Virus record (IMG/VR): IMGVR_UViG_3300037478_000427
Location: 1 to 53,813 of that record
DNA length: 53,813 nt
Strand: one strand, 5' to 3'
Source of the DNA: a virus
Taxonomy: Duplodnaviria; Caudoviricetes
The position numbers were made by a program, and so were the translations under genes. The notes below the pieces were generated by a model that was not told where the DNA came from, made no database searches, and was given only the letters and a program-made list of their open reading frames with translations. Shown piece by piece: positions 1 to 53,813 of this stretch. Within the stretch, counting starts at the first letter, position 1; each line of letters begins with the position of its first letter.

Positions 1-127
1 CTACGGCGGTGGCACCGTGTACGGGTCGGGCTACGTGCAGCGGATGAACACGCCGCGGCGCATCGATCGCCCGTATGCTCGGGCTCTGTACAGCATCAAC
101 ACGTCTCGACCGATCCTGCGCCGCGCA
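1..127. repeat. Terminal direct repeat, copy 1 (circular assembly overlap)
   Basis: Bases 1-127 are identical to 53687-53813. 127 is a common assembler k-mer length and the repeat lies inside a coding sequence. Confidence 0.95.
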
Positions 128-184
128 ACCCTGCGTCGTCAGCGGTTCGCGTCCCAGCGAGGAAGGCTCAACCAGTGGCAGTAG
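2..184 (+). CDS. C-terminal end of the giant protein starting at 40392 (spans the circular join)
   Basis: Same frame as 40392-53813 via the overlap; reads YGGGTVYGSGYVQRMNTPRR...RGRLNQWQ, TAG at 182-184. Confidence 0.9.
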   Translation, partial: YGGGTVYGSGYVQRMNTPRRIDRPYARALYSINTSRPILRRATLRRQRFASQRGRLNQWQ

Positions 185-2142
185 GGATGATGGCTTTCGA
201 GCCGGTGGAGGACTTCGAGAACTGGTATGACTACAGGTCCGAAGACCGAGACGGGTGTCTGAAGTTCTCGGGGATCTCGAAGCGAGGGCAGGAGCTGTTC
301 CAGCGCTTCGAGTTCTACCGCAGTGAGCACCGCAAGCGGGTGGAGCACTACGACAAGTACGAGATGATGGCGGATGCCGAGGTCGTCTCGCGCAAGCCTG
401 ACCTGCCGAATGTGAGCTCGGGTGAGATCGCTGGCATGGTGCGCCGGGTCGCGCGCATCGTGGTGCAGCACACGCCGAACGTCGAGGTGATCTGCGAGTT
501 CGACGACGACCAGCCGAACGGCATCCTCGCGAAGCACATCCTGCGCTCGAAGATCATCGGCGACGAGACGAACTCGAACGAGATGCAGCAGAACCTGTTC
601 GCCTCGGTGATGAGCTCGTTCACCCTGGGCTTCGACGCCGTCGTGCCCGTGCTCAAGCAGGAGGCTGACGGCACCTGGTGCATGGAGTACGACTCGCTGC
701 ACTACCAGGATGTCTTCCCCGAGCCGGGCGTGAAGGATGCACGCAAGGCGCCGGAGATCTTCGTGCGCCGGTATCTGTCGAAGGGCGAGATCATCTCGCT
801 CATCCGCAACCAGCCTGCTGGCTGGGACATCCCGGCGCTGCGCCTGCTGGCGCGCTCGCGGCCGCCGTCGAAGCAGCAGGAGTCGGTGTCGCACGCCGAG
901 AAGCGGGCGCACACGATCCCCGATGGCTACGAGGTCATCACCTGGTACAACTCGTACGGTGACCCGTTCCTCACCTTCGATGCGAAGACCAAGGCCCTGC
1001 TGCGCATCGAGAAGAACAAGGACCCGCTGAAGCGCCATCCGGTGCAGTTCCTGATCCTGGAGAAGGATCCGCAGCAGCCGCTCGGGAAGTCGCAGGTGGC
1101 GCTGGTGTACGGGCGTCAGGAGTTCCAGGACCTGATGCTGAACGGAGCGATGAAGCTCTGGTACAAGAACATCAACCCCACGATCCTCGGCTTCGGCACC
1201 GGACTGAACGGTGTGCCGAACATGAGCCCGGGGAAGTACACGCACATCCCGAACCCGACGGCGAAGATCGAAGCCTTCGAGGTCAACACCCAGACGCTGC
1301 TCCAGTACGGGCAGATCAGCCAGCAGAACCAGGGCAGCATGATCAACCTGGTCGGTGCCGCGGATCAGCAGATGGCCGCCACTGCCGGGAACGGGATGAG
1401 TGCGACGCCTCAGGGTGTCGAGGCGCAGGAAGCTCTCGTCGACATCACGACGAACAACTACCAGAAGGCCGTCGAGAACTTCTTCTCCCGGTACTGCTCG
1501 TACGCGCTGACGGTGTTCTTCGCCGAGATGAAGGGTGTCGACAAGCTGACGCCGACGGCGGATGCACGGCGTGCGCTGGTGGGTGCGGGCCTCGATGAGA
1601 CCCTCTTCGATAGGGAGGGCCACCTCTCGATCAAGCTGTCCGAGATGGCGACGGTCTACAGCGTTCGTGCGGTGCCCGGTTCGCTGGTCGAGATGGAGGA
1701 CGAGAAGCAGCTCCGCATCCTGAACGAGCTGTTCATCCCGCTCTCCCAGTCCATGAACGCCATCGCAGGGTCGGGCGACCCGGCCATGCTGTCGAAGGCG
1801 GCGGCCGCGATGGTGTTCATCATCGACAAGCAGATCCAGCTCTCCGGCTCCGCGCACGCGGACGAGCTCTCGAAGGTGTTCCGGGAGGGTCCGACGCAGG
1901 ACAACGTCATGCAGGGGCAGCAGGTGCAGGCTCTGGAAGACGGAATCAACAACGCCTTCGAGGCTATGAATGAGAGCAATGTTCAGTCTGCTGATGCGCT
2001 GAAGCAGATGCAGGAGCAGATCTCGCTGATCACACAGACTCAGCAGGCTCTGCTCGAACAACTGGGTATCTCAAGTCCAACTAGTGGCGCACCGCGGCCT
2101 GAAACTGCTGTGCCGATTTCGACTCCTGCACCTGTGCAGTAG
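175..2142 (+). CDS. Portal protein (podovirus type)
   Basis: 655 aa, directly upstream of the capsid gene, helical/coiled-coil C-terminus, size and composition typical of P22-like portals. Start could be GTG 175 or ATG 187/190. Confidence 0.75.
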   Translation: MAVGMMAFEPVEDFENWYDYRSEDRDGCLKFSGISKRGQELFQRFEFYRSEHRKRVEHYDKYEMMADAEVVSRKPDLPNVSSGEIAGMVRRVARIVVQHTPNVEVICEFDDDQPNGILAKHILRSKIIGDETNSNEMQQNLFASVMSSFTLGFDAVVPVLKQEADGTWCMEYDSLHYQDVFPEPGVKDARKAPEIFVRRYLSKGEIISLIRNQPAGWDIPALRLLARSRPPSKQQESVSHAEKRAHTIPDGYEVITWYNSYGDPFLTFDAKTKALLRIEKNKDPLKRHPVQFLILEKDPQQPLGKSQVALVYGRQEFQDLMLNGAMKLWYKNINPTILGFGTGLNGVPNMSPGKYTHIPNPTAKIEAFEVNTQTLLQYGQISQQNQGSMINLVGAADQQMAATAGNGMSATPQGVEAQEALVDITTNNYQKAVENFFSRYCSYALTVFFAEMKGVDKLTPTADARRALVGAGLDETLFDREGHLSIKLSEMATVYSVRAVPGSLVEMEDEKQLRILNELFIPLSQSMNAIAGSGDPAMLSKAAAAMVFIIDKQIQLSGSAHADELSKVFREGPTQDNVMQGQQVQALEDGINNAFEAMNESNVQSADALKQMQEQISLITQTQQALLEQLGISSPTSGAPRPETAVPISTPAPVQ

Positions 2143-2210
2143 ATCATGTGTACTGACAACGCCGGGCTGACCGGCAGGCATACCCGCCAAGACAGGAAGG
2201 AGGTGCGCTG

Positions 2211-22047: not shown

Positions 22048-22139
22048 GTGACACAGGTGGTTGCAAGGCTGGCACCAATTTGCTCTAGCGCCTTCTCGTG
22101 TAGGAACTTGTGGCAAGACCTGTTGTCACCTGTAGTCAC
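22048..22139. repeat. ~92-bp quasi-palindromic element, copy 1 (candidate origin/operator)
   Basis: Imperfect direct repeat of 39036-39126; bounded by GTGAC...GTCAC, shares GGCTGGCACCA. Confidence 0.75.
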
Positions 22140-34345: not shown

Positions 34346-34382
34346 GTGTCCGGTCAAGCAGACAGTCAGCTTGACCGGACAC
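34346..34382 (-). terminator. Intergenic stem-loop
   Basis: 14-bp inverted repeat GTGTCCGGTCAAGC/GCTTGACCGGACAC. Confidence 0.5.
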
Positions 34383-34461
34383 TCATCGTACTGTGGTCAA
34401 GCTGACCGATCTTGGTCAACGTGACCGTCAGCCTGACTGTCAGCCTGACCGTCAAGCTGAC
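34365..34461. repeat. Array of six GTCA-N3-TGAC palindromes
   Basis: Starts at 34365, 34396, 34415, 34427, 34439, 34451; the last four have a 12-bp period. Confidence 0.85.
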
Positions 34462-39035: not shown

Positions 39036-39126
39036 GTGACTACAGGTGATTACAGGGCTGGCACCACTTTGGGCTGTCGCTTTCTCATGTACTACTTGGT
39101 GCCAGGGTTGTCACTGCCTGTGTCAC
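39036..39126. repeat. ~91-bp quasi-palindromic element, copy 2 (candidate origin/operator)
   Basis: Imperfect direct repeat of 22048-22139. Confidence 0.75.
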
Positions 39127-39999: not shown

Positions 40000-40145
40000 T
40001 GTTGCAAGAAAAGTGACATAATGTAACGATAGGATCAAATGAACCTATCTATTTAATGTAACTGGAAATGGCTTATATAATATACATATATACATATGTA
40101 TAGGGGGTATGTGTTGTCTTATTTGTATTATATTATATTTTAGGA
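40000..40145. other. Very AT-rich tract at the divergence point (promoter/unwinding region)
   Basis: Runs such as TATATAATATACATATATACATATGTATA in an otherwise GC-rich genome. Confidence 0.8.
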
Positions 40146-40391
40146 AGTGCGCAGAAAACTTTTCGCACCGCCACACATGTCCGGCCATGTATCTCCTGCT
40201 AGCCGTCGGTGAGGCTGCCGCAGGCAGTAGCAACCTCAACCTCGCTTGAGGTTCAACCCAGCCAGCCAGAGTCGTCTCTGTCACATCCGTGGGGCCTGTA
40301 CGGTCATGACACGGGTAACTCCGCGTGCGGAGACAGCCGAAGGAGCATCGGCAGGTACGATTGCCTCTGACGACGAGCGGAAGGTGCCCAG

Positions 40392-43300
40392 GTGGCAAGC
40401 GGAGATGAGTTCGCGGCGGGAGCCGGCGCCAGGATCGCGGGTCCGGCTGGGCTGAACCAGCAGGTGGAGGATCAGGCGCAGGCGAACGCCGAGGCGACCG
40501 GGCAGCCCCTCCAGAGTGCGTTCGCCCAGGCCGCCTCGAATCGCCTCGCAGGCCCGGTCACCGAAGCCCCGGGTGCCCCGCGCTGGTCGACGGGTGGTCA
40601 GACGGGCGACACCGCGAACGCCTTCGACAACGAGTTCTACGACACGTTCTTCAGCCAGCAGCGGGAACAGGTCGACAAGGGTGCGCTCGGCGAGCTGTAC
40701 CAGCGCAAGGACTTCACGGGCGTGGTGACGTACGACGGCAGCCAGGACGCGACCGGCAAGGCTGCCACGTTCGGTGACGTGTACGAGGACGGCCGCAAGG
40801 TCGGAAACCTGTACGAGTCGTACGACCGGGCGACGGCGGACAGTCTCCTGGCGGATCTGACGCTCGACCCGGAGACGCGGCGGCAGGCGTACGCCCGCTT
40901 CGACACCGACCCCGAGGCATTGAGCCGGGAGGTGCAGCGGGTCCGGGATGCCACCACCAGTGACAACCAGAAGTTCCTGGGGCAGCAGGAGTACGCCTCG
41001 GCGGTCGATGAGGTGTCCAACCGGTTCGAGCAGTCGGACGGCGTGGACGAGGTGCTCACGGTGCTCGGCGGTGCCGCGGGTGGTGCGGCCGTTGGGGCGG
41101 GTGCCGGCGCGCTGTTCGGCGGGTTCGGTGCGATCCCGGGCGCCATCATCGGCGGTGTGGTCGGCGGGGTGGGTGCGGCGCTGAACCAGGACGAGATCCT
41201 GGATGCGGCGGCCCGCGCGAAGGTGCAGACGGACATGGCGTCCGAGCAGTTCGGTCCGGCGGGGGCTGTCTCCACGGGCGTGCTCGGCTGGAGCCAGGTC
41301 GCAGGCAAGCTGGTGAACCCCCTGGGGAATGTGACCCGCGGGGCGTACGACGCCATCGAGGGCGATCTGAACGACGGCGAGCTGGCGTACTACAGCACCG
41401 ACGAGAACGGTGAGGCCACTCGGCCGCTGTGGATGACGGGGCTGAATCTGGCGGCGACGCTGGGTGATGCGGCGTTCACGTTCGCGACTCCGATCGGTGC
41501 TGCGGCGTATCTCACGCCGATGACGGGTGCGATCCTGGGTGAGGTCGGGCAGCTCGCCTTCCAGGGCGGTAGCACCTTCTCGGATCAGCGTGGCGACTTC
41601 GACTCGATCTTCACCGACGACCAGGGTGACTTCGATCCGGGCAGTGCGGCGGCCGGGATCGGGAAGATCGCGATCGACGCGGTGCAGGTGGCCACTCCGG
41701 TGGGCCTGATGCGGATGTTCCGCGGCAACGAGCAGGCGGTCGCAGCGGGGCTCTCCGGGCGCCGCGTCACTGCGGGCGGGTTCAGCTACCGGCTCGATGA
41801 CGCGGGACGGGCGATCGACGGCACGCGTCGGGTGAGCGCGTCGCTGCTCGCCCCGTCGGAACAGCTCACTGCGATCTCCGCACGGGTGCTGGCGAGGCGG
41901 GATGCGGCCCTCAGAACTGGTGCTTCCCGGAACACGGTGGTGCTCACGGCGGACGACTACTACCGGGCGGCGACGAAGCTCTCGGATGGCACGGGGCGCT
42001 GGTCGAGCGCCCTGGTGACCGCGGTGGGCGAGGGCTACGAGGAGTTCGTGCAGGCGATCCTGGAGCCGGTCAGCCACGACGACCGGATCGACTGGCGTGA
42101 GGCGTACGACGCGGCGCTCCAGGGCGCTGCGATGGGCGCTGGCATGTACCTCGGTGCCTCCGCGGCCCGGCGCGGCCCTGCGTCGGCGGACGAGCGGCTG
42201 TACGCGAAGGCGGTGCTCGCCCGGCGAGACCTGACGGGTGACACGGACTCCTCGCCGGAGCAACTCTTCCCGCGCTCCGAGTGGACCGCGATGCGCGACG
42301 TAGAGCGGCGGCAGGCGGCAGCGCTCTCGCCGATGCAGACGGAGCAGGCGCGTGTCGCGCTCCAGAAGCTCCAGGGATCCATGCAGGCCGATCAGGTCGC
42401 GGGGATCTGGGGCGTGGAGAAGGTGCGCGACGCCGTCGTCAAGCAGGCGAACACCGAGGCGAATCGTGCCGGCCGGCGCTCTGACGGCTCGTACGTGATC
42501 ACGATCCTCGAGGATGCGGACTGGCCGGGGCACACGATCGGCAGCTCGCTCGACCAGACGATCAGCCTGATGGTGGATCACGGCCGGGGTCTGGAGGAGC
42601 AGGTCGAGTTCCTCACCCGCACCGACCTGAACTCCCAGGACGCTCAGGTGCAGAGCAGTGCTCGTGCGACGATCGACGAGACTCAGCAGGTGATCCAGCG
42701 GGTCAACGAGTACCTGACTCAGCTCCGGGCGTTCAAGGACGTGGCGGACCGGGAGCGGGTGGCGGGTGACCGTGTCCGTCACGACGAGGTGGTGCGCCTG
42801 GCGAACTCCCGGCTGCGGGCGTGGTTCAGCGACCAGGACTCCATCGGCCAGAGGGCCGGGACGCTGCTGTTCGTGCGCAATCCGACCGACCAGACCGGCT
42901 CGTACCAGGCGTTCATGCCGCAGGTGGTGCCGGGGCTGTCGTGGGATCAGGCGGACAACGCTCTCCAGACGTCGACTGCTGTGCTCCAGGGGCTCGGCGG
43001 CGACTACGACGGCGACAAGATCGTGTACCAGGGCAAGCTCCTGGTGGACGGCGAGACCTTCCAGAACCTTCGGACCGGAAGGAATCTCATCGGGACCATG
43101 GGTCCGACGGCGGAGGCGGTGAACATCGGCACGCGTGAGTTCGAGGAGCGCGAGGTGCAGGTGCTCGCCGGTGCCCTCGCGGCGAACAACGTGCCGGTGG
43201 CCACCGGTGCGCAGGCCACGATCGCGGACATCGCACGCTGGTTCGCGACCCGCTACGACGGCTACATCCCGAGGGACCGGATCGATCGCATCAACCGGCG

Positions 43301-46300
43301 CCTGGCGCACGACCTGCGCTCGGGTGACACGAGGGCGCGCGACCACATGCTCACCGCGCTGGCGCGTGAGGAGGGCTTCTGGAAGCGGGCACGGGAGTTC
43401 AACTCGAACGAGCCGATCGCCGCGGACGGGCAGGTGCAGCTCGAACTCCAGAGGTTCCAGCGCTACCAGGCGGTGCAGAAGGCGACGGACAACCCGGTCG
43501 CGAACACTGATGCCATCGCGCCGACGGTGCAGAACTCCCGGGCGTGGGCGATCAAGCAGGTTCGTGCGGCCACGGAGGGGCAGGATCTGGGGCTCCGGGC
43601 GGAAGGGCACAGCCTCTTCCGGATGTTCCAGAAGCTGCACTACTCGGTCTTCAACGCCCAGGTGATCGGCAGTGATCCGGCGAACCTGGCGGCCGCCACT
43701 GCTGATCTGACGACGGCGTACGAGGCCCTGTCCCAGGGCGCCACGCAGGAGCAGGGTACGCAGGCGACAGACCGGGACAACATCGCGGCGAAGGTGCTCG
43801 GCTACCTTCAGGCGCTCGCGGCAGGCTCCGATGCCCCCACCAGGGATCTGGTGATGATCGGGTCGATCTCGGTCGGCAATGCGGAGTTCGGCGAGAGCGG
43901 CGACTTCCGGATCAACAACGAGCCGATCTCGATGCTCCAGCTTCTGCTGCGGCAGGCGATCGGTGAGGACCGCCGGGACAAGGCCGCGGTCATCACGCCT
44001 GAGCTGGAGAGCAAGTGGGCCAGGCTGGAGCAGCTCACCCGTCCGGGTAACTCGGGCGAGGCGATGGTGGAGATGCTGGGCGGTCGGACGCTCTGGTCTC
44101 TGCTGGGTGAGCAGGCTGCGGCACTGGGTCCGCAGCTCACGCTGGAGCAGTTCGTGCGGGTGTACGTCGGCCAGAGCAAGAACGCCCGGCGCACCGCGTC
44201 GCAGCGGATGAAGCTGGAGCCGGCGTACCTCGGGCGCAAGGAGCGCAAGGATGCGCCGTACGACTGGCGCGAGATCACCGACCCGGCGTCCGGGCTGACG
44301 GCGTACCGCACCCTGGTGGACGCGGTGCTGGAGACCGGCAACAACCGGGTGTACCTGCGGGACGACTTCTCGGTCGGCGGCAGCTACGGGCAGCGGAGCG
44401 ACCGGTACCAGGGTGCGCTCGTCGAGGCGTTCAGCAACATCGGACAGGCGTTCAAGCAGCGCGGAAGCGGCAGGAACGCTGCTGAGGTCCGAGCGCTGCT
44501 GGACGCCTACCCGGACTTCGCGCGCGACGTGATGAATCTGATCCCGGACGGCGACGTGAACGCCGTGTTCGAGTACCGGGACGGCAAGCTGTACATCAGC
44601 AACTGGGTGTACGAGATGCTGGCGATGGAGCCGGCGCAGGCTGCCACGCACTACTGGCGGAATCTGATCCTGTCGCAGTGGCACGCGAAGGGTGCGCGGC
44701 ACGACGACGAGGACGGCGACAAGGCGCGCACGTACAACCGGCTGGACAACCGGTGGCACCAGCTCATGTTCCGGCTCGCCAACCAGGGTGACGGCGGGTA
44801 CGCACTGGCGGACTTCACTCGCCGGATGCAGCAGGCGACCGACCTGAGCGAGTTCACCAAGTACGTGAACCAGTCGATTCGCTCCACGACGGAGGCGCCG
44901 TTCACGGCCTGGATGGCTGACACGGCGGACTACGATCCGGACAAGGCGAGTGGTGGCTGGTCGGGTGGTGGCGGTGCCGCGACCGTGCGAGAGGCAATCC
45001 TGGCGCTGCGTGATCGCAGCTCACGGCTGACGCAGGAGGTCGCCGAGGAGCAGATCGCAGCACAGGCGGACGACGTGCTGATGTCCAGCCTTCTGACAGC
45101 AGACCAGGCTGGAGATGAGGCGGCCAACGGTGACAAGACGCTGCTGGCGAACCTCGATCGCGCGATCGAGCTCGCTGGGCAGCAGCTCACCGCGATGGGT
45201 CCGGCGGCGATGCGGTACCAGATCGTCGGCAGCCAGCGCACGTTCTACCCGCAGGCGACCGACAAGGGCCGGGCGCCGGACGTGTACCAGGTGCACGGCT
45301 CGTTCCAGGCGCTCGCGGACACGATCGGCTATGCGACGCAGTATGAGCGGCTGCGGGACATGCTGATCTCGGTGGACGCCGAAGACCTCGGGGCGAACCC
45401 GCAGGTGCTCGCGCGTGACGACCTCGACGTGTCCGACGGCGACGGGTCGACGTTCTCCTGGGAGGGCGTGGACCGGTCTCGCATCCTCCAGCTCTGGGCG
45501 GACGAGCCGGCCAGCCGTCCGCTGATCCGGGCGATGCTGTTCCCGAGCGTGTACGAGCGCACGGCCAACGGCCGCCTGTCCCAGCAGTTCCTCACCGGCA
45601 AGTCGATGAAGGAGCTGCTGGAGCGCAACCTGTACCCGCGGATGATCACGGACTCCTCGGCCGAGTCGAAGTTCACGTACCTGTCGATGCTCGAGTCCCA
45701 GGCGAAGCGGGACGAGGCGCAGTTCGTCGTGCAGCGTGCGGTGAACGACATCCTGTTCGCGCATTCAGCTTCTGCAACTACTCCTCTGTCGACGAGCGAG
45801 CAGGAGCAGCGCACCGACGAGATGATGCTGACGGTCGCGGACATCATGCGGCAGGTCGGCGATCTGGTCGCGACGTCGGGTGAGGGCGCCAAGCCGCTGC
45901 TCGACGGTATGCGGGAGCGGCTGACGCAGATGCTGGAGCAGCGTCGCGGTGGCGCTGCGCTCGGGCTGACCGGCACTGACGCGGAGTACGCGCACACGAT
46001 GATCGAGGCCGCGGTCGATGACCGGCTCGCCGAGCTTCAGGAGCGGCAGACCGCTGCGCTGACCACCGGTGACCTCGATCGGGCTGAGTCGATCGGGCGA
46101 CTGATCCAGCAGCTTCGCCCGCGGATGCAGGCGGCGCTGGATTCGAGGGCGTTCAAGCAGTACCGCGAGAACCTCGCGATCGACTGGAACGACCCGACGC
46201 AGGCCGAGATGAAGAAGGCGGAGATCCGGGACGCGGTCACGGCACCGGGACGGGGCACCACGCTCAAGACGAAGGCGCCCTGGGCGTCCGACGCCGTCGA

Positions 46301-49300
46301 CCGGGTGCTGGCGTACGACCTTCAGGACAACAACGACTCGAACCCGATCCTCTTCGTGAACGAGCAGGACGACCGTGAAGGCTGGGACTCCCTGGTGGAC
46401 GCGCTCACGGCCGCCTACTTCGAGGACGCCACTTCGATCCAGGCCGAGGGCGTGGCGGTGCCGCAGCTCAGATGGGGCAAGGACTACATCCGGCGCTACT
46501 GGGACCCGACCTACAGCTACCTGCTGGACCACATGCTCGACGTCGAGTCTCCGCTCGTGCAGGCTGCCGCTCGCACGCACCTGCTGGCGTTCGACTCGAA
46601 CACCAGCATGGCTGACGCGGCGGCGCTGGAGCGGCGCATCGCGGCCAGCGTGCTCGACGAGTTCCGGCTGGCGCAGTGGAGTGTGGACATCCCGCGCGTC
46701 AGTGTCGAGGCGAACCAGCGCATGGACGCCAGTGCGGCCGCGGATGCCGTGGCGATGGGCGGGATCAGCCCGCGTCGTCAGTTCGTCACGAACGTGGCCA
46801 CCGAGCGGCAGTACACCCAGCCGCTGCCGGATTCCGTCTCGACGGCGAGCATTCCGCTGGTGCGGCTGCTCACGGGGTCCGGTGAGTTCCCGACGACGCT
46901 GCGTGTGCCAGGTGCGCAGGATCAGGACGTCTCCACGCCGGTGATGCTGATGAACGGGCGGTTCGCCCGGAGCGTCACGGTCGACATCGACGGCCAGCAG
47001 TACCCGATCCCGATGGACCGGGTCGGGCATCAGCACTTCGAGAACGCCTCGATCGTGCAGTCGGGCCTGCGTGCCATCACGGTGCGCCGGCTCCAGCGTG
47101 CCGTCGAGGCGATGCCGGAACTGCGGGGCGCCGACCGGGATCGCGTGGTCGTACACGTGGAGTACCTGCACCCGGACAGTCAGCCCGCGACGCCCGAGCA
47201 CTACAACAGCATCTTCTACGGCGGCGTCACCGGCGAGCTCGAATCGGACAGCCAGCGCTCGGTGAACGCGAGCCTGTGGTTCGGCGCCGGCGGGCAGTCG
47301 CCGGACGTGCAGGCGTCGGCTCTCGGCGCCAACAAGAAGGGGAAGCTCGCCTACGTCCTGAAGGCGAACAACGAGCAGTTCACCGGCCGGGCTCGCCGCG
47401 AGGCCGAGCTGGGCTGGGAGACCGACCTGTCGCAGGTGATCCAGCGCAAGACGATGGCGCTGATGACCAACGACCTCGGCAACGGCGTGCTGGAGCAGAC
47501 GAACTTCAACGCGGTGTTCGCCGACGCACGACGGCGCCACTTCGTGCGCGGGTCGATCGACGGCGAGCGCGTGCTGTGGGATGCGGAGAAGGTCATCGCG
47601 TGGCAGCGGGCCAACCCGGGCCGCTCGATCGCCGAGGTCATCGAGGCGCCGGAGCTGTGGAAGCCGGGCGCTCGCACCCTGCGCACGATGCTGGGCGAGA
47701 CCGGTGACCAGGGCGCTGCCGGTCGGATGCTGCTGGAGGTCGACTTCGACCCGCAGGCAATCCCGCGCTACCGGGGCGTCGACAACACGCCGGGGATCCT
47801 GGACAGGGTGCCGGGCTGGAGCAGGACGACCGATCTGTTCGCGACCCCTGCGGCCGGGCGCACGTTCCAGTCACGGCTGCGGATCCGGCCTGCGCTGGAC
47901 GAGCGGACGCGGCTCGCGTACGAGCGTGGCGTGCAGTACCGCGGTGCGCTCAAGGCGCAGGTGCACGAGGCGCGGGACGCGAACTGGGGTGACGGCCGGG
48001 CAGGGAAGCAGGCCGGTGACGCGGTCTCGTCGGCGACGGATGCCGTGCGGTCGGAGACGCCTGGCCTGGACTTCGTGACGGCGGGCTTCGGGTTCATCGG
48101 CCAGCCGGCCAGTTCCGATCAGCTCATCTCCGAGGTGGTGCTGCGCGGCTACCGTGAGTCGATGCAGCTTCGCGGCCGGGAGACCGGCTGGATCTACCGG
48201 GAGCAGGTGTCCGGGCGGCTGCCGTCGGATCCTGCCGCGGGTGTCATCACGCAGACGCAGATCGACCCGAACCAGAAGGGCTTCCCGTCACGGTTCGAGA
48301 ACCAGATCGCGCCGGATGACCTGGTCGCCGTCGAGGTCGACTCGTTCCTCGCGGTGTCTCAGGACCCGGCCAAGCGCCGCAGTGAGGCGATGAAGCGCCT
48401 GGACCTGCTGGCGCAGCGGTGGCCGGTGATCGCGCTGACCGAGGGGGATGGCGGCCGCGACCTGCGGGCCGAGCTCGGCCAGTACCTGACCGACTCCCTG
48501 GGCTACGAGCGTGTGGCGGGCACCAGCCACCTGTACCGCCCGGCAGTGCGTGACAGCCGCTATCAGACGCAGCAGGCTCGTGTGTCGACGCTGGCGGAGA
48601 CGCACACCGAGTCGGCGGAGAACTACTACTCCGTGTTCCTCGCGGGGCCGGAGAGCCCGCTGCCGGTCACCGAGAACGCTGCGCTCCTGCTGAACAGGAG
48701 CTCGGCCCGTCAGGTCGCCGTCGGTGTCGGACTCGTGCCGGTGAATGCCTTCGGCTCCTTCGGGATGCCGCAGGACCCCACTACGATCGAGTCGACCCGG
48801 AGCGCTGTCGAGCGGATGCTCCGGCCCGAGCAGTTCGAGCACCTGCTCAAGCTGTCGGCGATCGAAGACCCGATGTCGCAGGAGGCTGGCGATCTGCGTC
48901 TGGCGCTGGAGCGCTACGTGCAGAACGTGGACGACTCCGGGCGTCCGGCGCGGGGCACGGAGTTCGGTCTGGGTGACATCCTGCCGCTGGTCGATCGTCG
49001 CGGCCGCATCCTGCTGTACCGGCACGGGCACAAGGCTCCGACGCACGTCGAGCAGCAGCTCGCCTCAGAGCTCATCCCGGGTGCCGGCGGGTTCGGCGTC
49101 GCGGTGTACACCGCTGTGCCGCAGCCGACGGCGACGGTGAACACCGGCAAGATCGTGAAGTTCGAGACGGACACCCAGTATGGGCTGACTGTGCAGATGC
49201 GCATTCCGCTCCAGCGTCTGGCCGACAAGCTCCAGGTCGAGGGTAACGCGATGAAGTACGTCGTCGCCTCGGCCGACAAGGTGTACACGCCGCGGCACGA

Positions 49301-52300
49301 CCTGTTCGCCAACGGCGAGCGCATCGACCTGGGCAGCGACCTCGACTCCGCGCTGGCGAAGGAGTCGACTGGTGGCCTGATCAACAACTTCCGGAACGCC
49401 TTCGCGTTCTTCGGCATCGACTTCATGCCGGACCTCGTGCGCTACTTCTACGGCGGCGACTACGCCCAGATGAGCTCCAGTGAGCGCGAGGCCGCCGCGA
49501 CCGCGGTACGTCAGCTTCTGCTGGCGGTGCACGACCAGTCGCAGCCGCTGCCCGTCGAGGTGGTGCAGCAGCTCATGTCGGCTCCGTACGTCGATGCCGA
49601 GGTGACTGAGCTCCTGCGTAGCGTGGCTGGTCCGTCGGTCGGCAACTCGAACTGGCGTGAGCAGATCATGGACCCAACGGCGGATGCTCCGCACCAGCGG
49701 ATCGCCCGCGCCGTCGTGCTGTACATGCTGATGCCGCAGGCTCGGTCGGAGCACGTGCTCAGTGCTGGCGGCATGAACAACTCGGACATCCGGACCCGCG
49801 GGTTCATCAACCACATGCCGCGGATCTTCACCGAGGTGTTCGACAGGACCGGACTGAACGACGAGCTGCGGACAGAGCTGATCCGGCGGCTCAATGCGCA
49901 GATCGACAACGCTCCGGCTCTCTCGGCGCAGTCGGCCGAGCGGTACTGGATCAGCCCAGACTTCGGCTTCCACATGCACGTGGAGCAGGAGCCCGGCCAG
50001 ATCAGCCAGCTCGACGGCTATCTCCAGTTCTCTTCGGTGTTCTCGGCCGGAGACAACCCGGTGCTGAACGGGCAGGCGTACGACCGCAGTGACCGGCAGA
50101 ACTGGAGCCGCCACTCCCTCGACATGGCGTACGAGACTATCGGCGCACGCACGGCGGCAGAGCGTGGGCTCGACAAGACCGCACGCTTCGCCCAGCTCCG
50201 CACCGGCCTGAGCCGCGGCTCGCTGTGGCAGATCCTCAACGACGTCACGCCCGAGCAGGGCGACCCGGTGTTCCTCCGCGAGCGCCCGGGTGAGATCGCA
50301 CGACGCCAGCTCGCGTACGAGGCGGTCGGGGAGTTCCGTTCGGCACTCGATCCGGCGCGCTGGGACGACGGCCAGTACGACCGCTACCTCGCGAAGCGCG
50401 TCGAGACCGCGCAGGCGTACGGGCTGCGGGAGGACCAGGCTGGCACCGTGGACTTCTGGGTGCGACAGATGTCCGGCCGCCCGCTGAACGAGACGGGTGG
50501 TGCCATCGGGTACCGCGAGGCGATGCAGGACCTGGACGAGATCCAGTGGAATGCCAGCCGTGGGCTGCTGCCGGTCGCTGGTGCCGAGGTGCCGCAGATC
50601 CACCTGCACGACCTGACCATGATGTTCAACGCCGGGGGCTCGAGGTTCCGGCTGGTCGAGGGCGCCGGCTCGGCGACGCCGGTCACGAGCTGGGAGGGCT
50701 GGGTGCAGGTCGCGCTCGGTACCGGGCAGGTCGAGCACAAGCTGTTCGACCCGATGTACCTGCTCGCGACGGACGGAATGATGCACTCGTTCCAGGACGC
50801 CATGGATTCTACGGTCAGCCTGCCGGTGAGCCGGGACATGATGGTCGCGGCGAACATGCTGGACGAGCAGACCGACCGCATCATCCAGTCACTCAACCAG
50901 GATGAGGAGCCCGTCCGCGTCCGAACCGACCGCCTCATCCAGTCGATCAATCCGGATGAGGACGTGCTGCTCCAGGACCCCATCGTGCTGGAGGCGGCCC
51001 GCCAGTCGTTCTCCGACCTGATGGGGGCGGAGCGCGTGGGCGCCTCGTTCCAGGGGTACCAGGCGCCGGACTCGGTGCTCGCCAAGCGGCGTGCCGCACG
51101 CCTGCGCTGGCGCAAGGAGCACGACGTGCCGACGCCGATGGACGTCACGCAGCAGAACTTCCGCGAGGGTGGCGTGAAGTTCATCGACGAGTCGACCAAG
51201 ACGAACACGCTGATGCGCGTGATGACCAACCTGCGAGTCGGCAACGCGCTGCTCAACCCGCTCCTGTGGGTGGGTGCTGGCCCTGAGATGTGGCTGCGTG
51301 GCGCGATGGACGAGGCGGGCAACCTGCTCCAGGGCACCTCGACGGCAGCGACCGGTCGGGTCGCCGCGGCCGTCGGGCTGTCCGCGAACTACACCCCGCA
51401 GCAGATCGACATGCTGCACGGTCTGTACAAGTCGCTCGGTCGCCGATCGGACTTCAAGGGCATGGTCTACCGCGAGCTGTCGTTCCAGCAGCCCCGGCTG
51501 AACAACGCCGGACGGATCGAGCGGTGGACTCACAACTACGCCCAGTTCGCCAGCCGGTGGCAGGACCCGACGTACGGGATGCCTGCGAACGCGGTAGCGC
51601 GCCGGTATGTCGAGAAGGCGCTGGACGAGCTCCAGTACACCGACCTGGGTGTCACGCCGGAGCAGCTCTCGGCGCAGCTCAACCAGGACCCGACGTGGCT
51701 CCAGAAGCACGCACCGGACGTGCACCAGGCCGCGGTGAACAGCATCGCGCAGATCCGCTCGCTCCGGCCGACTCCGCTCAGTCTGACGCTGCGCGGGATC
51801 TACGAGCCGATGAGCGAGTCGGCGCACATGCCGGTGAACCTGATGGGGCACCTGGTGAAGCTGCCGCTGCTGTTCTCGGGCTACCTCACGAACACCGTGA
51901 CGACGCTGACCGGTATGCAGGGCTTCAGCAACATGGCCGCCATGTTCCTCGAAGGCCGGAACAAGGGCCTCATCGGTCGGATCCAGGCCGCGATCAAGGG
52001 CGAGGAGTTCAGCCAGGAGAGCAACTACGTGGACATGTCCACGGCGCTCGACGGCGTGAACCTGGCGAAGATGTTCGTGCAGGGTGGCCTGACGCACACC
52101 GGGCTGTTCGCACTGGGTCTGGCAGCACAGGGGCTCGGGCTCACCGGCGAGGACGAGGAGGAGCGTCGTCGCCGGCGCGCGGCGCTCGTGCAGGGCGGGC
52201 AGTTCCTGTACGACCCGCGCCGTCTTCAGAACGACTTCCGCAACCAGGAGGCCGTGTTCCTGGACTGGCTGCCGCCGTTCTTCTCCCAGTGGTTCGATGT

Positions 52301-53813
52301 GAGCGGTGAAGGCACCACCTCGATGGCGAACATGCCGTGGATCGTGGAGCAGTTCATCTCGCCGATCATCGGTATGGAGCGCTTCTTCGACACCGGCGAC
52401 CCTCGACAGATCCTCTGGGGATTCCAGCACGGCCTCGGAGCGAGCCCGCTGTTCAACGCCTCCTCGTTCGATGACGCCAGCCAGATGTTCGCCGAGCTCA
52501 TGGCGAACGCCGACGACGCCGCCAAGCGCGGCACGCCGGACGACCTGGCGGAGAGCTACGGCTTCATGGTCTCCGCGGTCGGCACGCTGGAGCGGATGAT
52601 GTTCGAGAACGCCTTCGTGAACAGCATCTACGTCGGGATCGACAAGTACGACCGCGACCAGTGGAAGCTGCCCATGACGGACAGCGACGGCGAGCAGCAG
52701 GTGGACATCTTCGGGACTCCTCGGCAGACCGAGGCGCTGACGAACTTCGTGGACCCGGAGACCGGGGAGATCCGGTCGGGCTACGTGAACCGGGACTGGG
52801 TGTCGGCGACGGCACGGCAGCTCTCGGAGAACCGGCTCGGCGTGGCTCTGATCGGTGCTCTCACGTCCGGCAAGGGCTTCGAGTCCGACTTCTTCCGGCA
52901 GAACATGGTGGTGAAGCAGCGCAAGCTGCGCAAGCCTGAGCTCTCGCCGGAGGAGACCGAGGGTCTGCTGCTGTCCGTCTGGGACTCCGAGACCTACGGT
53001 GACGGGCACGAGCTCCTGACCGAGGGTGGCGCTCGTGCCGTGTTCCAGGGGATCTACGGCGGCACCGTGCAGTTCGGGGCTCCGGCCCTGGACGGCGTGT
53101 TCGTCCCGCTGGACATGCGGCAGACGATCCAGGACAAATGGATGGCTGACATCATGGCCGACGGCATCAAGTCCGGGCTGAGCGAGAAGGATTCCACCAG
53201 CCGTATGTGGGACATCTGGCTGGGCTCGAGTGACTCGCCGTACGGGGTCGGGCTGAAGGACATCCTGTGGTCGAAGGAGATCCCGTACACCGAGACCGTC
53301 CGATACAACCAGCTCAACACCACGTACGTCATCGGGCCGGACGGCTGGCCGTGGGCGACGGGCGTGAGCCGGGACAACCTGACGAACCTGTTCGGCATGG
53401 CGCCGGCTCGCTACCAGGTCGACCCGGGCAACCTGGCGTCCGATGAGCGGCTGAATACGATCGACGACGCCGTGCGCCTCAACACCGGGATGCGCGCCCT
53501 GGAGCGGATCGACGACACCTGGGCCATCCCGACGGACGAGGAGATCGGTGAGCGGATCCAGGAGTCGCTGGAGAAGCTCGGCGACAACCTCACCGAGGCG
53601 CTCAAGGGCGACGGTAACGGCTGGGTGAACTACCCACGCCGGTCGGGCAGCTACGGCCGGGGCAGCTACGGCTCCGGCGGTGGCTTCTACGGCGGTGGCA
53701 CCGTGTACGGGTCGGGCTACGTGCAGCGGATGAACACGCCGCGGCGCATCGATCGCCCGTATGCTCGGGCTCTGTACAGCATCAACACGTCTCGACCGAT
53801 CCTGCGCCGCGCA
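40392..53813 (+). CDS. Giant ~4,492-aa virion protein containing a two-barrel DNA-dependent RNA polymerase (continues across the join to 184)
   Basis: GGAAGG RBS then GTG 40392 after an in-frame stop at 40368. No terminated ORF in this frame appears in the track. VRNP (42873-42884) and GGDYDGD (DYDGD at 43002-43016) are beta'-like; ADK-x8-K...NGERIDL (49221-49331) is beta-like. Confidence 0.88.
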   Translation, partial: MASGDEFAAGAGARIAGPAGLNQQVEDQAQANAEATGQPLQSAFAQAASNRLAGPVTEAPGAPRWSTGGQTGDTANAFDNEFYDTFFSQQREQVDKGALGELYQRKDFTGVVTYDGSQDATGKAATFGDVYEDGRKVGNLYESYDRATADSLLADLTLDPETRRQAYARFDTDPEALSREVQRVRDATTSDNQKFLGQQEYASAVDEVSNRFEQSDGVDEVLTVLGGAAGGAAVGAGAGALFGGFGAIPGAIIGGVVGGVGAALNQDEILDAAARAKVQTDMASEQFGPAGAVSTGVLGWSQVAGKLVNPLGNVTRGAYDAIEGDLNDGELAYYSTDENGEATRPLWMTGLNLAATLGDAAFTFATPIGAAAYLTPMTGAILGEVGQLAFQGGSTFSDQRGDFDSIFTDDQGDFDPGSAAAGIGKIAIDAVQVATPVGLMRMFRGNEQAVAAGLSGRRVTAGGFSYRLDDAGRAIDGTRRVSASLLAPSEQLTAISARVLARRDAALRTGASRNTVVLTADDYYRAATKLSDGTGRWSSALVTAVGEGYEEFVQAILEPVSHDDRIDWREAYDAALQGAAMGAGMYLGASAARRGPASADERLYAKAVLARRDLTGDTDSSPEQLFPRSEWTAMRDVERRQAAALSPMQTEQARVALQKLQGSMQADQVAGIWGVEKVRDAVVKQANTEANRAGRRSDGSYVITILEDADWPGHTIGSSLDQTISLMVDHGRGLEEQVEFLTRTDLNSQDAQVQSSARATIDETQQVIQRVNEYLTQLRAFKDVADRERVAGDRVRHDEVVRLANSRLRAWFSDQDSIGQRAGTLLFVRNPTDQTGSYQAFMPQVVPGLSWDQADNALQTSTAVLQGLGGDYDGDKIVYQGKLLVDGETFQNLRTGRNLIGTMGPTAEAVNIGTREFEEREVQVLAGALAANNVPVATGAQATIADIARWFATRYDGYIPRDRIDRINRRLAHDLRSGDTRARDHMLTALAREEGFWKRAREFNSNEPIAADGQVQLELQRFQRYQAVQKATDNPVANTDAIAPTVQNSRAWAIKQVRAATEGQDLGLRAEGHSLFRMFQKLHYSVFNAQVIGSDPANLAAATADLTTAYEALSQGATQEQGTQATDRDNIAAKVLGYLQALAAGSDAPTRDLVMIGSISVGNAEFGESGDFRINNEPISMLQLLLRQAIGEDRRDKAAVITPELESKWARLEQLTRPGNSGEAMVEMLGGRTLWSLLGEQAAALGPQLTLEQFVRVYVGQSKNARRTASQRMKLEPAYLGRKERKDAPYDWREITDPASGLTAYRTLVDAVLETGNNRVYLRDDFSVGGSYGQRSDRYQGALVEAFSNIGQAFKQRGSGRNAAEVRALLDAYPDFARDVMNLIPDGDVNAVFEYRDGKLYISNWVYEMLAMEPAQAATHYWRNLILSQWHAKGARHDDEDGDKARTYNRLDNRWHQLMFRLANQGDGGYALADFTRRMQQATDLSEFTKYVNQSIRSTTEAPFTAWMADTADYDPDKASGGWSGGGGAATVREAILALRDRSSRLTQEVAEEQIAAQADDVLMSSLLTADQAGDEAANGDKTLLANLDRAIELAGQQLTAMGPAAMRYQIVGSQRTFYPQATDKGRAPDVYQVHGSFQALADTIGYATQYERLRDMLISVDAEDLGANPQVLARDDLDVSDGDGSTFSWEGVDRSRILQLWADEPASRPLIRAMLFPSVYERTANGRLSQQFLTGKSMKELLERNLYPRMITDSSAESKFTYLSMLESQAKRDEAQFVVQRAVNDILFAHSASATTPLSTSEQEQRTDEMMLTVADIMRQVGDLVATSGEGAKPLLDGMRERLTQMLEQRRGGAALGLTGTDAEYAHTMIEAAVDDRLAELQERQTAALTTGDLDRAESIGRLIQQLRPRMQAALDSRAFKQYRENLAIDWNDPTQAEMKKAEIRDAVTAPGRGTTLKTKAPWASDAVDRVLAYDLQDNNDSNPILFVNEQDDREGWDSLVDALTAAYFEDATSIQAEGVAVPQLRWGKDYIRRYWDPTYSYLLDHMLDVESPLVQAAARTHLLAFDSNTSMADAAALERRIAASVLDEFRLAQWSVDIPRVSVEANQRMDASAAADAVAMGGISPRRQFVTNVATERQYTQPLPDSVSTASIPLVRLLTGSGEFPTTLRVPGAQDQDVSTPVMLMNGRFARSVTVDIDGQQYPIPMDRVGHQHFENASIVQSGLRAITVRRLQRAVEAMPELRGADRDRVVVHVEYLHPDSQPATPEHYNSIFYGGVTGELESDSQRSVNASLWFGAGGQSPDVQASALGANKKGKLAYVLKANNEQFTGRARREAELGWETDLSQVIQRKTMALMTNDLGNGVLEQTNFNAVFADARRRHFVRGSIDGERVLWDAEKVIAWQRANPGRSIAEVIEAPELWKPGARTLRTMLGETGDQGAAGRMLLEVDFDPQAIPRYRGVDNTPGILDRVPGWSRTTDLFATPAAGRTFQSRLRIRPALDERTRLAYERGVQYRGALKAQVHEARDANWGDGRAGKQAGDAVSSATDAVRSETPGLDFVTAGFGFIGQPASSDQLISEVVLRGYRESMQLRGRETGWIYREQVSGRLPSDPAAGVITQTQIDPNQKGFPSRFENQIAPDDLVAVEVDSFLAVSQDPAKRRSEAMKRLDLLAQRWPVIALTEGDGGRDLRAELGQYLTDSLGYERVAGTSHLYRPAVRDSRYQTQQARVSTLAETHTESAENYYSVFLAGPESPLPVTENAALLLNRSSARQVAVGVGLVPVNAFGSFGMPQDPTTIESTRSAVERMLRPEQFEHLLKLSAIEDPMSQEAGDLRLALERYVQNVDDSGRPARGTEFGLGDILPLVDRRGRILLYRHGHKAPTHVEQQLASELIPGAGGFGVAVYTAVPQPTATVNTGKIVKFETDTQYGLTVQMRIPLQRLADKLQVEGNAMKYVVASADKVYTPRHDLFANGERIDLGSDLDSALAKESTGGLINNFRNAFAFFGIDFMPDLVRYFYGGDYAQMSSSEREAAATAVRQLLLAVHDQSQPLPVEVVQQLMSAPYVDAEVTELLRSVAGPSVGNSNWREQIMDPTADAPHQRIARAVVLYMLMPQARSEHVLSAGGMNNSDIRTRGFINHMPRIFTEVFDRTGLNDELRTELIRRLNAQIDNAPALSAQSAERYWISPDFGFHMHVEQEPGQISQLDGYLQFSSVFSAGDNPVLNGQAYDRSDRQNWSRHSLDMAYETIGARTAAERGLDKTARFAQLRTGLSRGSLWQILNDVTPEQGDPVFLRERPGEIARRQLAYEAVGEFRSALDPARWDDGQYDRYLAKRVETAQAYGLREDQAGTVDFWVRQMSGRPLNETGGAIGYREAMQDLDEIQWNASRGLLPVAGAEVPQIHLHDLTMMFNAGGSRFRLVEGAGSATPVTSWEGWVQVALGTGQVEHKLFDPMYLLATDGMMHSFQDAMDSTVSLPVSRDMMVAANMLDEQTDRIIQSLNQDEEPVRVRTDRLIQSINPDEDVLLQDPIVLEAARQSFSDLMGAERVGASFQGYQAPDSVLAKRRAARLRWRKEHDVPTPMDVTQQNFREGGVKFIDESTKTNTLMRVMTNLRVGNALLNPLLWVGAGPEMWLRGAMDEAGNLLQGTSTAATGRVAAAVGLSANYTPQQIDMLHGLYKSLGRRSDFKGMVYRELSFQQPRLNNAGRIERWTHNYAQFASRWQDPTYGMPANAVARRYVEKALDELQYTDLGVTPEQLSAQLNQDPTWLQKHAPDVHQAAVNSIAQIRSLRPTPLSLTLRGIYEPMSESAHMPVNLMGHLVKLPLLFSGYLTNTVTTLTGMQGFSNMAAMFLEGRNKGLIGRIQAAIKGEEFSQESNYVDMSTALDGVNLAKMFVQGGLTHTGLFALGLAAQGLGLTGEDEEERRRRRAALVQGGQFLYDPRRLQNDFRNQEAVFLDWLPPFFSQWFDVSGEGTTSMANMPWIVEQFISPIIGMERFFDTGDPRQILWGFQHGLGASPLFNASSFDDASQMFAELMANADDAAKRGTPDDLAESYGFMVSAVGTLERMMFENAFVNSIYVGIDKYDRDQWKLPMTDSDGEQQVDIFGTPRQTEALTNFVDPETGEIRSGYVNRDWVSATARQLSENRLGVALIGALTSGKGFESDFFRQNMVVKQRKLRKPELSPEETEGLLLSVWDSETYGDGHELLTEGGARAVFQGIYGGTVQFGAPALDGVFVPLDMRQTIQDKWMADIMADGIKSGLSEKDSTSRMWDIWLGSSDSPYGVGLKDILWSKEIPYTETVRYNQLNTTYVIGPDGWPWATGVSRDNLTNLFGMAPARYQVDPGNLASDERLNTIDDAVRLNTGMRALERIDDTWAIPTDEEIGERIQESLEKLGDNLTEALKGDGNGWVNYPRRSGSYGRGSYGSGGGFYGGGTVYGSGYVQRMNTPRRIDRPYARALYSINTSRPILRRA
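53687..53813. repeat. Terminal direct repeat, copy 2 (circular assembly overlap)
   Basis: Identical to 1-127. Confidence 0.95.

Follow-up and report, generated by a model that had tools for sequence, protein, structure and literature searches.

The stretch of DNA analysed here is the IMG/VR virus record IMGVR_UViG_3300037478_000427, taken over its whole length of 53,813 nucleotides (the window). The window is the complete record, with a 127-bp direct terminal repeat at its ends and a G+C content of ~65%. It carries a giant open reading frame (ORF) which, when closed across the repeat, encodes 4,492 amino acids (aa). This analysis concerns a lysine-bearing stretch of the giant protein. A first-pass annotation, made by eye, had read the stretch as part of a beta-like double-psi barrel of an RNA polymerase (RNAP), placed after the catalytic, beta-prime-like barrel. 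The gene and its polymerase-like features are as follows.

40392..53813, + strand: giant ORF, aa 1-4474, running off the window end and continuing across the 127-bp terminal repeat to position 184
1..184, + strand: last part of the giant ORF past the wrap, made up of repeat copy 1-127, the final 18 codons and the stop codon
42474..43517, + strand: predicted active-site domain of beta-prime type, aa 695-1042, in which the catalytic double-psi barrel spans aa ~697-882, from AlphaFold2 model 2
42876..42884, + strand: R829-x-P831, counterpart of the invariant Rpb1 R446/P448 pair
43002..43016, + strand: D871-Y-D-G-D875, metal-binding triad, from conservation and a profile match
46719..47768, + strand: predicted C-terminal module of beta-prime type, aa 2110-2459; the matched part of beta-prime contains the bridge helix and the trigger loop
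48579..50057, + strand: predicted beta/Rpb2-like hybrid-binding module with the second double-psi barrel, aa 2730-3222, from AlphaFold2 model 1
48672..48674, + strand: E2761, candidate for the barrel-B acidic residue (where beta has its 'ED' pair), from pattern and not from superposition
48708..49208, + strand: flap-like insert in the barrel, aa 2773-2939, from a weak structural match to the beta flap
49212..49364, + strand: Lys stretch, aa 2941-2991, LQRLADK(2946)LQVEGNAMK(2955)YVV...ALAK(2990)E, from conservation and the model strands that follow each Lys

The Lys stretch and the beta-like barrel

The lysine peptide is present as aa 2934-2990, and positions 49180-49365 correspond to aa 2930-2991 of the giant ORF in its true frame. 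The start given by the first-pass annotation was, however, one base out of frame: read exactly, 49180-49365 in frame 1 gives stops, and the correct frame starts at 49179 or 49182. The residue numbers K2946 and D871-Y-D-G-D875 were exact against the translated ORF.

Conservation was counted over representatives sharing at most 50% identity, and for the lysines over the non-gap rows of 165 aligned family rows. The lysines were conserved as proposed: K2946 (148/154 rows), K2955 (153/154) and K2990 (157/159). The motif aligned by eye with bacterial beta held in part. The two lysines and the terminal basic residue are kept, but NG and hD are poorly kept. D2979 is Asp in 62/156 rows and P2967 is Pro in 115/154.

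The by-eye match to beta is not significant when taken alone. An hhalign comparison of the family (aa 2730-3229, 35 rows) with a beta alignment gave one match, at an E-value of 0.64 and a probability of 0.08, which is not significant either. The beta alignment had 11 rows: Escherichia coli, a Staphylococcus-type rpoB, six phage beta subunits, the Mollyvirus RPB2 and two RpoB sequences close to E. coli. The relatives found for E. coli RpoB all shared at least 86% identity, too close for a broad profile, and phage and giant-virus beta subunits were used. In this match, K2946 was paired with K1065 of E. coli, K2955 with K1073 and K2990 with the Arg of PSRMN, as the first-pass annotation had it; LADK-LQVEGNAMK-YVV...ALAK was laid against PGDK-MAGRHGNK-GVI...PSR. 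Among ~1,040 template columns, the sole match falls on GDK..RHGNKG..PSRMN. Since neither the by-eye nor the hhalign match is significant, the weight of the evidence lies on the conservation of the lysines and on the predicted fold. A second candidate for RHGNKG of beta, LLYRHGHKAP (aa 2874-2883), was dropped because its H and K are not conserved (H2878 in 87/156 rows).

Two pieces of 1,200 aa were modelled with AlphaFold2 without templates, both from 42-row alignments of window, IMG/VR-locus and database homologues. Model 1 (aa 2030-3229) had a mean predicted local distance difference test score (pLDDT) of 80.8 and a predicted template modelling score (pTM) of 0.52. A Foldseek search of the PDB with model 1 gave two matches at E≤0.001 (best 3.7e-4), and all listed rows were chains of multisubunit RNAPs of 950-1,312 residues. 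In the VIA structure comparison, aa 2730-3222 matched Rpb2 801-1097 and Mycobacterium tuberculosis beta 628-1036 (ranks 39-50), with Z from 7.0 to 6.3 (6.7-7.0 for Rpb2), 149-183 residues aligned and a root-mean-square deviation (rmsd) of 3.5-4.8 in most rows.

When model 1 was compared with 48,161 chains, 17 chains reached a Z of at least 5: five of beta-prime type, seven second-largest subunits and five other alpha/beta proteins. The second-largest subunits (African swine fever virus (ASFV), plastid, Xanthomonas, Pol IV, vaccinia, Pol I and Pol III) all matched on the model range 704-1198. Moreover, the designed double-psi barrel 7dww_A matched barrel B over 84 of its 86 residues (Z 4.7, rmsd 3.2), and N domains of p97/Cdc48 matched the model range 704/711/713-1190/1193 (Z 4.6-4.7). 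In BFVD, the first three matches of model 1 were the family itself ('Uncharacterized protein'). Ranks 4-8 and 10-15 were DNA-directed RNAP subunits of large DNA viruses, and rank 9 had no name. These predicted matches to second-largest subunits and to designed and Cdc48-type barrels support a double-psi barrel at the Lys segment, as the first-pass annotation had supposed.

The order of elements in the model also resembles beta. At the start of barrel B, a strand (YYSVFLA), a loop (GPESPLPVTEN) and a strand (AALL) resemble VAFMP-WNGYNFED-SILVSE of beta. The insert then extends to aa ~2939; its aa 2773-2939 matched the E. coli beta flap 830-1057 (3tbi_B; Z 4.7, 91 aligned) and the Thermus thermophilus flap 3woe_A (Z 4.7, 89 aligned). 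The insert is followed by LADK(2946), the strand LQV, a turn and K2955, which leads into the strand YVVAS. A loop with P2967, a short strand, a helix and K2990 complete the segment in the model secondary structure. In known enzymes, the basic pair of barrel B is K979/K987 in Rpb2 and R738/K743 in QDE-1, and D837 of Rpb2 helps to hold the second Mg ion (PMC2919709). Clear counterparts were found for seven of the eight residues compared. For the eighth, the Asp of barrel B, the only candidate is E2761, which is proposed from the pattern; it is Glu in 136 of 152 rows and Asp in 6, meaning that 142 of 152 are acidic.

The Asp barrel, the module order and known enzymes

R829, P831, D871, D873, G874 and D875 were each present in all 134 of 134 homologues. 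The R446/P448 pair of Rpb1, to which R829 and P831 correspond, is defined as an invariant motif in PMC2919709. Model 2 (aa 330-1529) had a mean pLDDT of 76.9 and a pTM of 0.43. Foldseek gave 49 matches for it at E≤0.001 (best 1.4e-5), and all listed rows were RNAP entries. In VIA, aa 695-1042 matched ASFV RPB1 319-648 (Z 12.4, rmsd 3.6, 226 aligned), E. coli beta-prime 347-650 and T. thermophilus beta-prime 622-960, with Z ranging from 12.4 to 11.4. In an unbiased comparison with the 48,161 chains, all eight chains with Z of at least 8 were largest RNAP subunits. The designed barrel 7dww_A matched aa 697-882 with 85 of 86 residues aligned (Z 6.9). Among the other structural matches of this barrel (barrel A) were ZmRDR2 (Z 6.0) and gp96 of phage P23-45 (Z 5.8).

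At the sequence level, the signal of this domain was weak. Among PDB sequences, the family profile found only phiKZ gp55 and AR9 beta-prime, at ...R.P...DFDGD/DYDGD with E of 0.13-0.46, and PHROGs contributed phrog_2987 ('RNA polymerase beta subunit'), placed on aa 822-893 at 2.5e-4. No barrel match was found within aa 330-695 of model 2, which is mostly helical there, and parts outside the main match are barely tested by the tool.

A further beta-prime-like module was found between the two barrels. For aa 2110-2459, VIA ranks 1-38 were all beta-prime chains: M. tuberculosis 861-1252 (Z 9.3, rmsd 4.7, 237 aligned), T. thermophilus 1077-1467 and E. coli 766/780-1351, with Z of 7.1-9.3 overall. 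The bridge helix and trigger loop fall within the matched E. coli range 780-1351; this is a match at the level of ranges. In the unbiased search with model 1, ranks 1-3 were beta-prime or beta-double-prime, and the beta-prime C chains of phiKZ and AR9 had Z of 6.1 and 5.3. By eye, we take GGISPRRQFV (aa ~2123-2132) to resemble the bridge-helix end SGYLTRRLV, and LWFGAGG (aa ~2295-2301) presumably resembles the trigger-loop start TFHIGG. The two segments that flank this module are:

43518..46718, + strand: segment between the two beta-prime-like parts, aa 1043-2109, ~1,060 aa, of which aa 1043-1529 are helical in the model
48024..48548, + strand: alpha/beta (Rossmann-like) domain between the beta-prime-like and beta-like modules, aa 2545-2719, at fold level

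The gap between the same two parts of beta-prime is ~130 residues in E. coli versus ~1,060 here. Within it, aa 1801-2000 are poorly conserved, with a mean consensus share per column of 0.34-0.38, and the ESM Atlas gave no usable match for aa 1043-2105. The alpha/beta domain had weak matches to folds of methyltransferases dependent on S-adenosylmethionine (SAM), namely aTrm4, NSUN5 and RlmO (Z 5.7-4.5). It also accounts for the five other model 1 matches mentioned above, which were four SAM methyltransferases and one peptide arginase. To our knowledge, cellular beta and beta-prime have no alpha/beta domain at the corresponding place.

The Lys barrel lies C-terminal to the Asp barrel by 2,076-2,314 aa (median 2,148) in the 102 sequences found by both of two short hidden Markov models (HMMs). 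In 32 more sequences, only the first motif was found by its short HMM, and a longer profile finds the Lys region too. The beta-prime-then-beta order, put forward in the first-pass annotation, is supported at the level of the predicted fold by both models and by the conserved residues. That annotation did not see that beta-prime is itself split, or that a flap-like insert interrupts the barrel as in real beta.

The first 3,000 aa were compared by tblastn with 50,697 phage records. Matches were found in 33, of which 32 were Microbacterium phages and one an Arthrobacter phage; all had less than 60% identity, and 11 of the 33 covered at least 80% of the query. These relatives comprise Burro and Araxxi (Burrovirus), members of cluster EK (Akoni, Fede and others) and MissAmericana. 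The homologues have 4,400-4,900 aa and are followed by a portal gene. Searching 1.84 billion proteins with a profile of aa 2700-3300 gave 175 representatives at E≤0.001, each standing for a cluster at 50% identity. At least 4,300 aa were present in 128 of 161 sequences (150 listed representatives plus earlier homologues), and the shorter entries are pieces of contigs that differ in length. In the cluster EK2 homologues (Akoni, Fede), the triad reads D-N-D-G-D instead of D-[YFH]-D-G-D, and ...GAKFIGSMTGKK... stands at the Lys motif. For Akoni and Fede, BLAST similarity to the window reaches no further than aa ~2315; the Lys pair and K2990 align nevertheless.

According to the Burro paper (PMC7302621), the Burro/cluster EK gene exceeds 13 kbp and 4,400 residues, takes up almost a quarter of the genome and was counted in 2020 among the largest viral genes, its role being unknown. 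The paper also describes the phages as podoviruses and Burro gp27 as virion-associated, seen as a band of ~250 kDa. Among 135 homologues listed with source names, only four had a product name, and none of the 15 giant-protein homologues had an informative one. Three of the four names were 'hypothetical protein' or plain 'RNA polymerase subunit beta', the latter on close RpoB relatives outside the giant family. RefSeq names Araxxi gp27 and MissAmericana gp30 'tail length tape measure protein' or 'tape measure protein', and the GenBank copy of Araxxi reads 'hypothetical protein'. As the phages are podoviruses, the tape measure name is probably wrong in at least these two database records. The predicted modules, which are polymerase-type folds, also bear on this label. 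No published polymerase assignment for the giant gene was found in the literature searched, which did not extend to subscription journals and supplements.

Multisubunit RNAPs, both bacterial and the split enzymes of phiKZ and AR9, gave the best structural matches for all three recognised modules. They share R-x-P...DxDGD on one barrel, a Lys pair on the other, a flap-like insert and a part with bridge helix and trigger loop. In contrast to them, the protein is here one chain of 4,492 aa in which beta-prime comes first and has ~1,060 aa inserted. QDE-1, the crAss-like gp66, gp64 and gp96 of P23-45 and YonO have both barrels in one polypeptide, as here. Their Lys barrel, however, precedes the Asp barrel by a few hundred residues (K743 versus D1007 in QDE-1), whereas here it follows by ~2,075. 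The first-pass annotation had given this order for QDE-1-type and crAss-like enzymes, and it agrees with the published orders of QDE-1, gp64 and gp66. In QDE-1, D709/R738/K743 precede R962/P964/D1007-1011 (PMC2919709), and PMC10770324 has the connector of P23-45 gp64, QDE-1 and gp66 running from barrel B to barrel A. Within very large proteins, gp66 and gp96 are phage enzymes delivered by the virion (PMC10770324). QDE-1-type matches to the giant protein were weaker than multisubunit ones (gp96 Z 5.8 and RDR2 Z 6.0, barrel A only), and none stood among the listed matches of the beta-like module. At the level of predicted folds, the closest enzymes are the multisubunit ones and not the QDE-1 group.

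Fusions of the two large subunits are also known. Helicobacter RpoBC is a beta::beta-prime fusion. NCgl1702 of Corynebacterium glutamicum is another beta::beta-prime fusion (2,169 aa, actinobacterial, thought to be of phage or mobile-element origin), and Orf6 of a yeast plasmid is an Rpb2::Rpb1 fusion (PMC2919709). As here, both large-subunit cores lie in one gene in NCgl1702 and Orf6, but their order is beta then beta-prime and here it is reversed. What is most likely new is a beta-prime-before-beta order in a two-barrel RNAP, the opposite of QDE-1, NCgl1702 and Orf6, as far as the modelled folds tell. By function, the virion RNAP of phage N4, a virion-packed podovirus protein of ~3,500 aa, is an analogue. 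The N4 enzyme is a T7-like single-subunit RNAP, whereas the predicted fold here is two-barrel. Jacobs-Sera et al. raised the N4 comparison for the Burro gene and report no similarity to the N4 virion polymerase (PMC7302621).

Interpretation and competing explanations

We read the Lys stretch as the lysine-bearing half of a beta-like second double-psi barrel in a single-chain, two-barrel RNAP, and from the modelled folds and the conservation we put the probability of this reading at roughly three in four. Most likely, the giant protein would be a virion RNAP. The modelled resemblance to the large subunits of RNAPs lies in the fold and not in a sequence family.

Several results weigh against this reading, most of them at the sequence level. 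Pfam found nothing in the giant protein at the beta-like or the beta-prime C-terminal part. PF00562 (RNA_pol_Rpb2_6) and PF00623 (RNA_pol_Rpb1_2) had no match at E≤10 in the six frames of the window, and both were found in 14 of 14 control genomes. Profiles of aa 2840-3060 and aa 2100-2470 gave nothing relevant among PDB sequences, hhalign against beta reached only the values given above (E 0.64, probability 0.08), and even the beta-prime barrel is weak by sequence (best PDB profile E 0.13; phrog_2987 at 2.5e-4). The fold evidence has soft points as well. Both models rest on 42-row alignments, and the scores of the beta-like module are middling (Z 6-7, 147-183 aligned), where the tool warns that Z below 8 can reflect a common arrangement. 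The residue equivalences are indirect, being drawn from hhalign, secondary structure and matched ranges. The invariant barrel-B Asp, D837 of Rpb2, has no clear counterpart: the residue beside E2761 is N, G or S (94, 27 and 19 of 152), and D2862 is Asp in only 119 of 156 rows. The N-terminal lobes of beta were not recognised in the folded parts (aa 330-1529 and 2030-3229), where only the C-terminal half of beta is seen.

Alternatively, the beta-like assignment could be an artefact, with Lys-x8-Lys sitting in an unrelated beta-rich domain and the true partner barrel lying elsewhere or coming from another protein. The insignificant hhalign value, the missing Pfam and PDB sequence matches and the low Z (6-7 for beta, 4.7 each for the double-psi barrel and the flap) would fit. 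Against it, second-largest subunits make up 7 of the 17 top rows (Z of at least 5.3 as listed), all on one model range, Foldseek and BFVD each find the RNAP family on their own, and the sole hhalign match falls on GDK..RHGNKG..PSRMN. The lysines are also as conserved as the Asp triad, and no barrel match lies upstream of DYDGD within aa 330-695. We regard an artefact as very unlikely. An RNAP-derived fold might also have been kept for another role, as an ejection or internal-core protein or as another nucleotidyl transferase (PolD-like, primase or QDE-1-like RNA-dependent). Two-barrel cores also occur in PolD and RNA-dependent RNAPs, ZmRDR2 and gp96 are among the matches of barrel A, no fold is recognised in about two thirds of the protein, and RefSeq calls two homologues tape measure proteins. 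However, DNA-dependent multisubunit RNAPs match best by a clear margin, also at the module with bridge helix and trigger loop. Across deeply diverged homologues the catalytic residues do not vary, as would not be expected if the protein were purely structural. A family A DNA polymerase and primase-type genes are already present elsewhere in the phage genome. Such a role seems unlikely to us.

The third alternative leaves the polymerase assignment in place and concerns the chain. The giant protein may be a polyprotein whose beta-prime-like and beta-like pieces, once cleaved apart, assemble into a multisubunit enzyme comparable to the split RNAPs that jumbo phages have; the order within the gene would then be of little consequence for the mature enzyme. 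The ~250 kDa band of the Burro virion is about half of the predicted ~480 kDa, and its authors consider the protein likely processed (PMC7302621). The poorly conserved aa 1801-2000 could be a linker, and the nearest phage structures are the split subunits of phiKZ and AR9. Yet a cut at aa ~1900 would part the beta-prime active site from its own bridge-helix half, and not beta-prime from beta. A Pfam scan of 41 ORFs showed no protease family, and in none of the 175 representatives is the protein split into separate genes at a fixed point. We hold cleavage into subunits to be possible but somewhat doubtful.

In the single-chain polymerase that we favour, the active-site domain (aa 695-1042) would be followed after ~1,060 aa by aa 2110-2459, the alpha/beta domain and the beta-like module (aa 2730-3222). 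The chain would fold back so that the two barrels face each other. A co-fold of aa 695-1042 with aa 2730-3222 gave run scores of 0.00, 0.75 and 0.00, which speak neither for nor against such packing. The three Asp residues together with E2761 would hold two Mg ions, and R829 and the two lysines would bind the incoming nucleoside triphosphate and the RNA 3' end, as in cellular RNAPs. What the analysis shows are the predicted folds, the order of the modules and the conserved residues; the packing of the barrels, catalysis, the type of template, delivery and timing are inferred. The protein would be packed in the capsid of a short-tailed phage and enter the host with the DNA, where it would act as the transcriptase for the early genes that run leftward. 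Ejection would be the task of its N- and C-terminal regions, which have hydrophobic segments.

The giant protein could represent a third way of making a two-barrel RNAP. A multisubunit-type core would be fused as beta-prime then beta, with beta-prime split by the ~1,060-aa insert and beta reduced to its C-terminal half. This core would sit within a protein of 4,500 aa that is packed in the phage head and threaded into the cell, combining an ejection device and an early transcriptase, and its fusion would be independent of the beta::beta-prime fusions. We rate the chances of this fuller picture as even. If the polymerase assignment is true, these phages would begin infection with their own transcription, independent of the host RNAP, and the 13-kb Burro/cluster EK gene, a quarter of the genome, gains a testable function. 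A beta-prime-first fusion with a multisubunit-type core would bring a new topology into this ancient family of enzymes. It would mean that either pair of termini can serve to link the two barrels, and it would be a natural permutation for asking how they find each other.

Other parts of the giant protein and genome context

Outside the polymerase-like modules, two hydrophobic segments were seen in the giant protein, and one gene was assigned by its position after it.

41040..41177, + strand: Gly/Ala-rich hydrophobic stretch resembling a membrane segment, aa 217-262, from sequence and weak DUF6861/phrog matches
52092..52178, + strand: hydrophobic helix and EDEEERRRRR, aa 3901-3929, within the most conserved block of the protein
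175..2142, + strand: gene after the giant ORF, in the portal-gene position of Araxxi, Akoni, Fede and MissAmericana; no Pfam family match

For Burro gp27, two N-terminal transmembrane segments are reported (PMC7302621). Conservation is highest in the C-terminal 1,260 aa (aa 3230-4492; window 50079-53813 and 1-184), with a mean consensus share per column of up to 0.75 at aa 3901-3950. Motifs of this region include YDPR..NDFRN, QLNTTYV.GPDG.PWATG and a Gly/Tyr-rich tail.

Genes run rightward from ~40.4 kb through the wrap to 20 kb and leftward between 20 and 40 kb. By Pfam, the leftward block encodes a family A DNA polymerase, a helicase, a PrimPol-like protein, a D5-type primase-helicase, a nuclease and an AAA ATPase, and the rightward block an amidase and fn3/GDPD-type proteins. 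Of the 51 ORFs listed, 41 were scanned with Pfam; these showed no match to another RNAP family and no alpha or omega subunit gene. No convincing family of repeated promoter-like motifs was seen in the leftward gene block. A leftward ORF of 117 aa (40045-40398, - strand) overlaps the first codons of the giant gene. It may be shorter or not real, because the giant start at 40392 fits the N-terminal consensus of the homologues (A.P.GL.QQ, aa 16-24).

Two repeats were seen in the leftward gene block. At 34353-34461, near the junction of two leftward ORFs, a partly palindromic unit (GTCAGCCTGAC-like) occurs four times, with three copies at 12-nt spacing; these copies could be a binding-site array or an origin. 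A direct repeat of 63 nt with 75% identity occurs at 22053-22115 and 39042-39104. The PrimPol-like ORF begins with one copy, the other immediately precedes the D5-type primase-helicase ORF, and the repeat may be a shared N-terminal coding segment, for example a zinc-binding motif.

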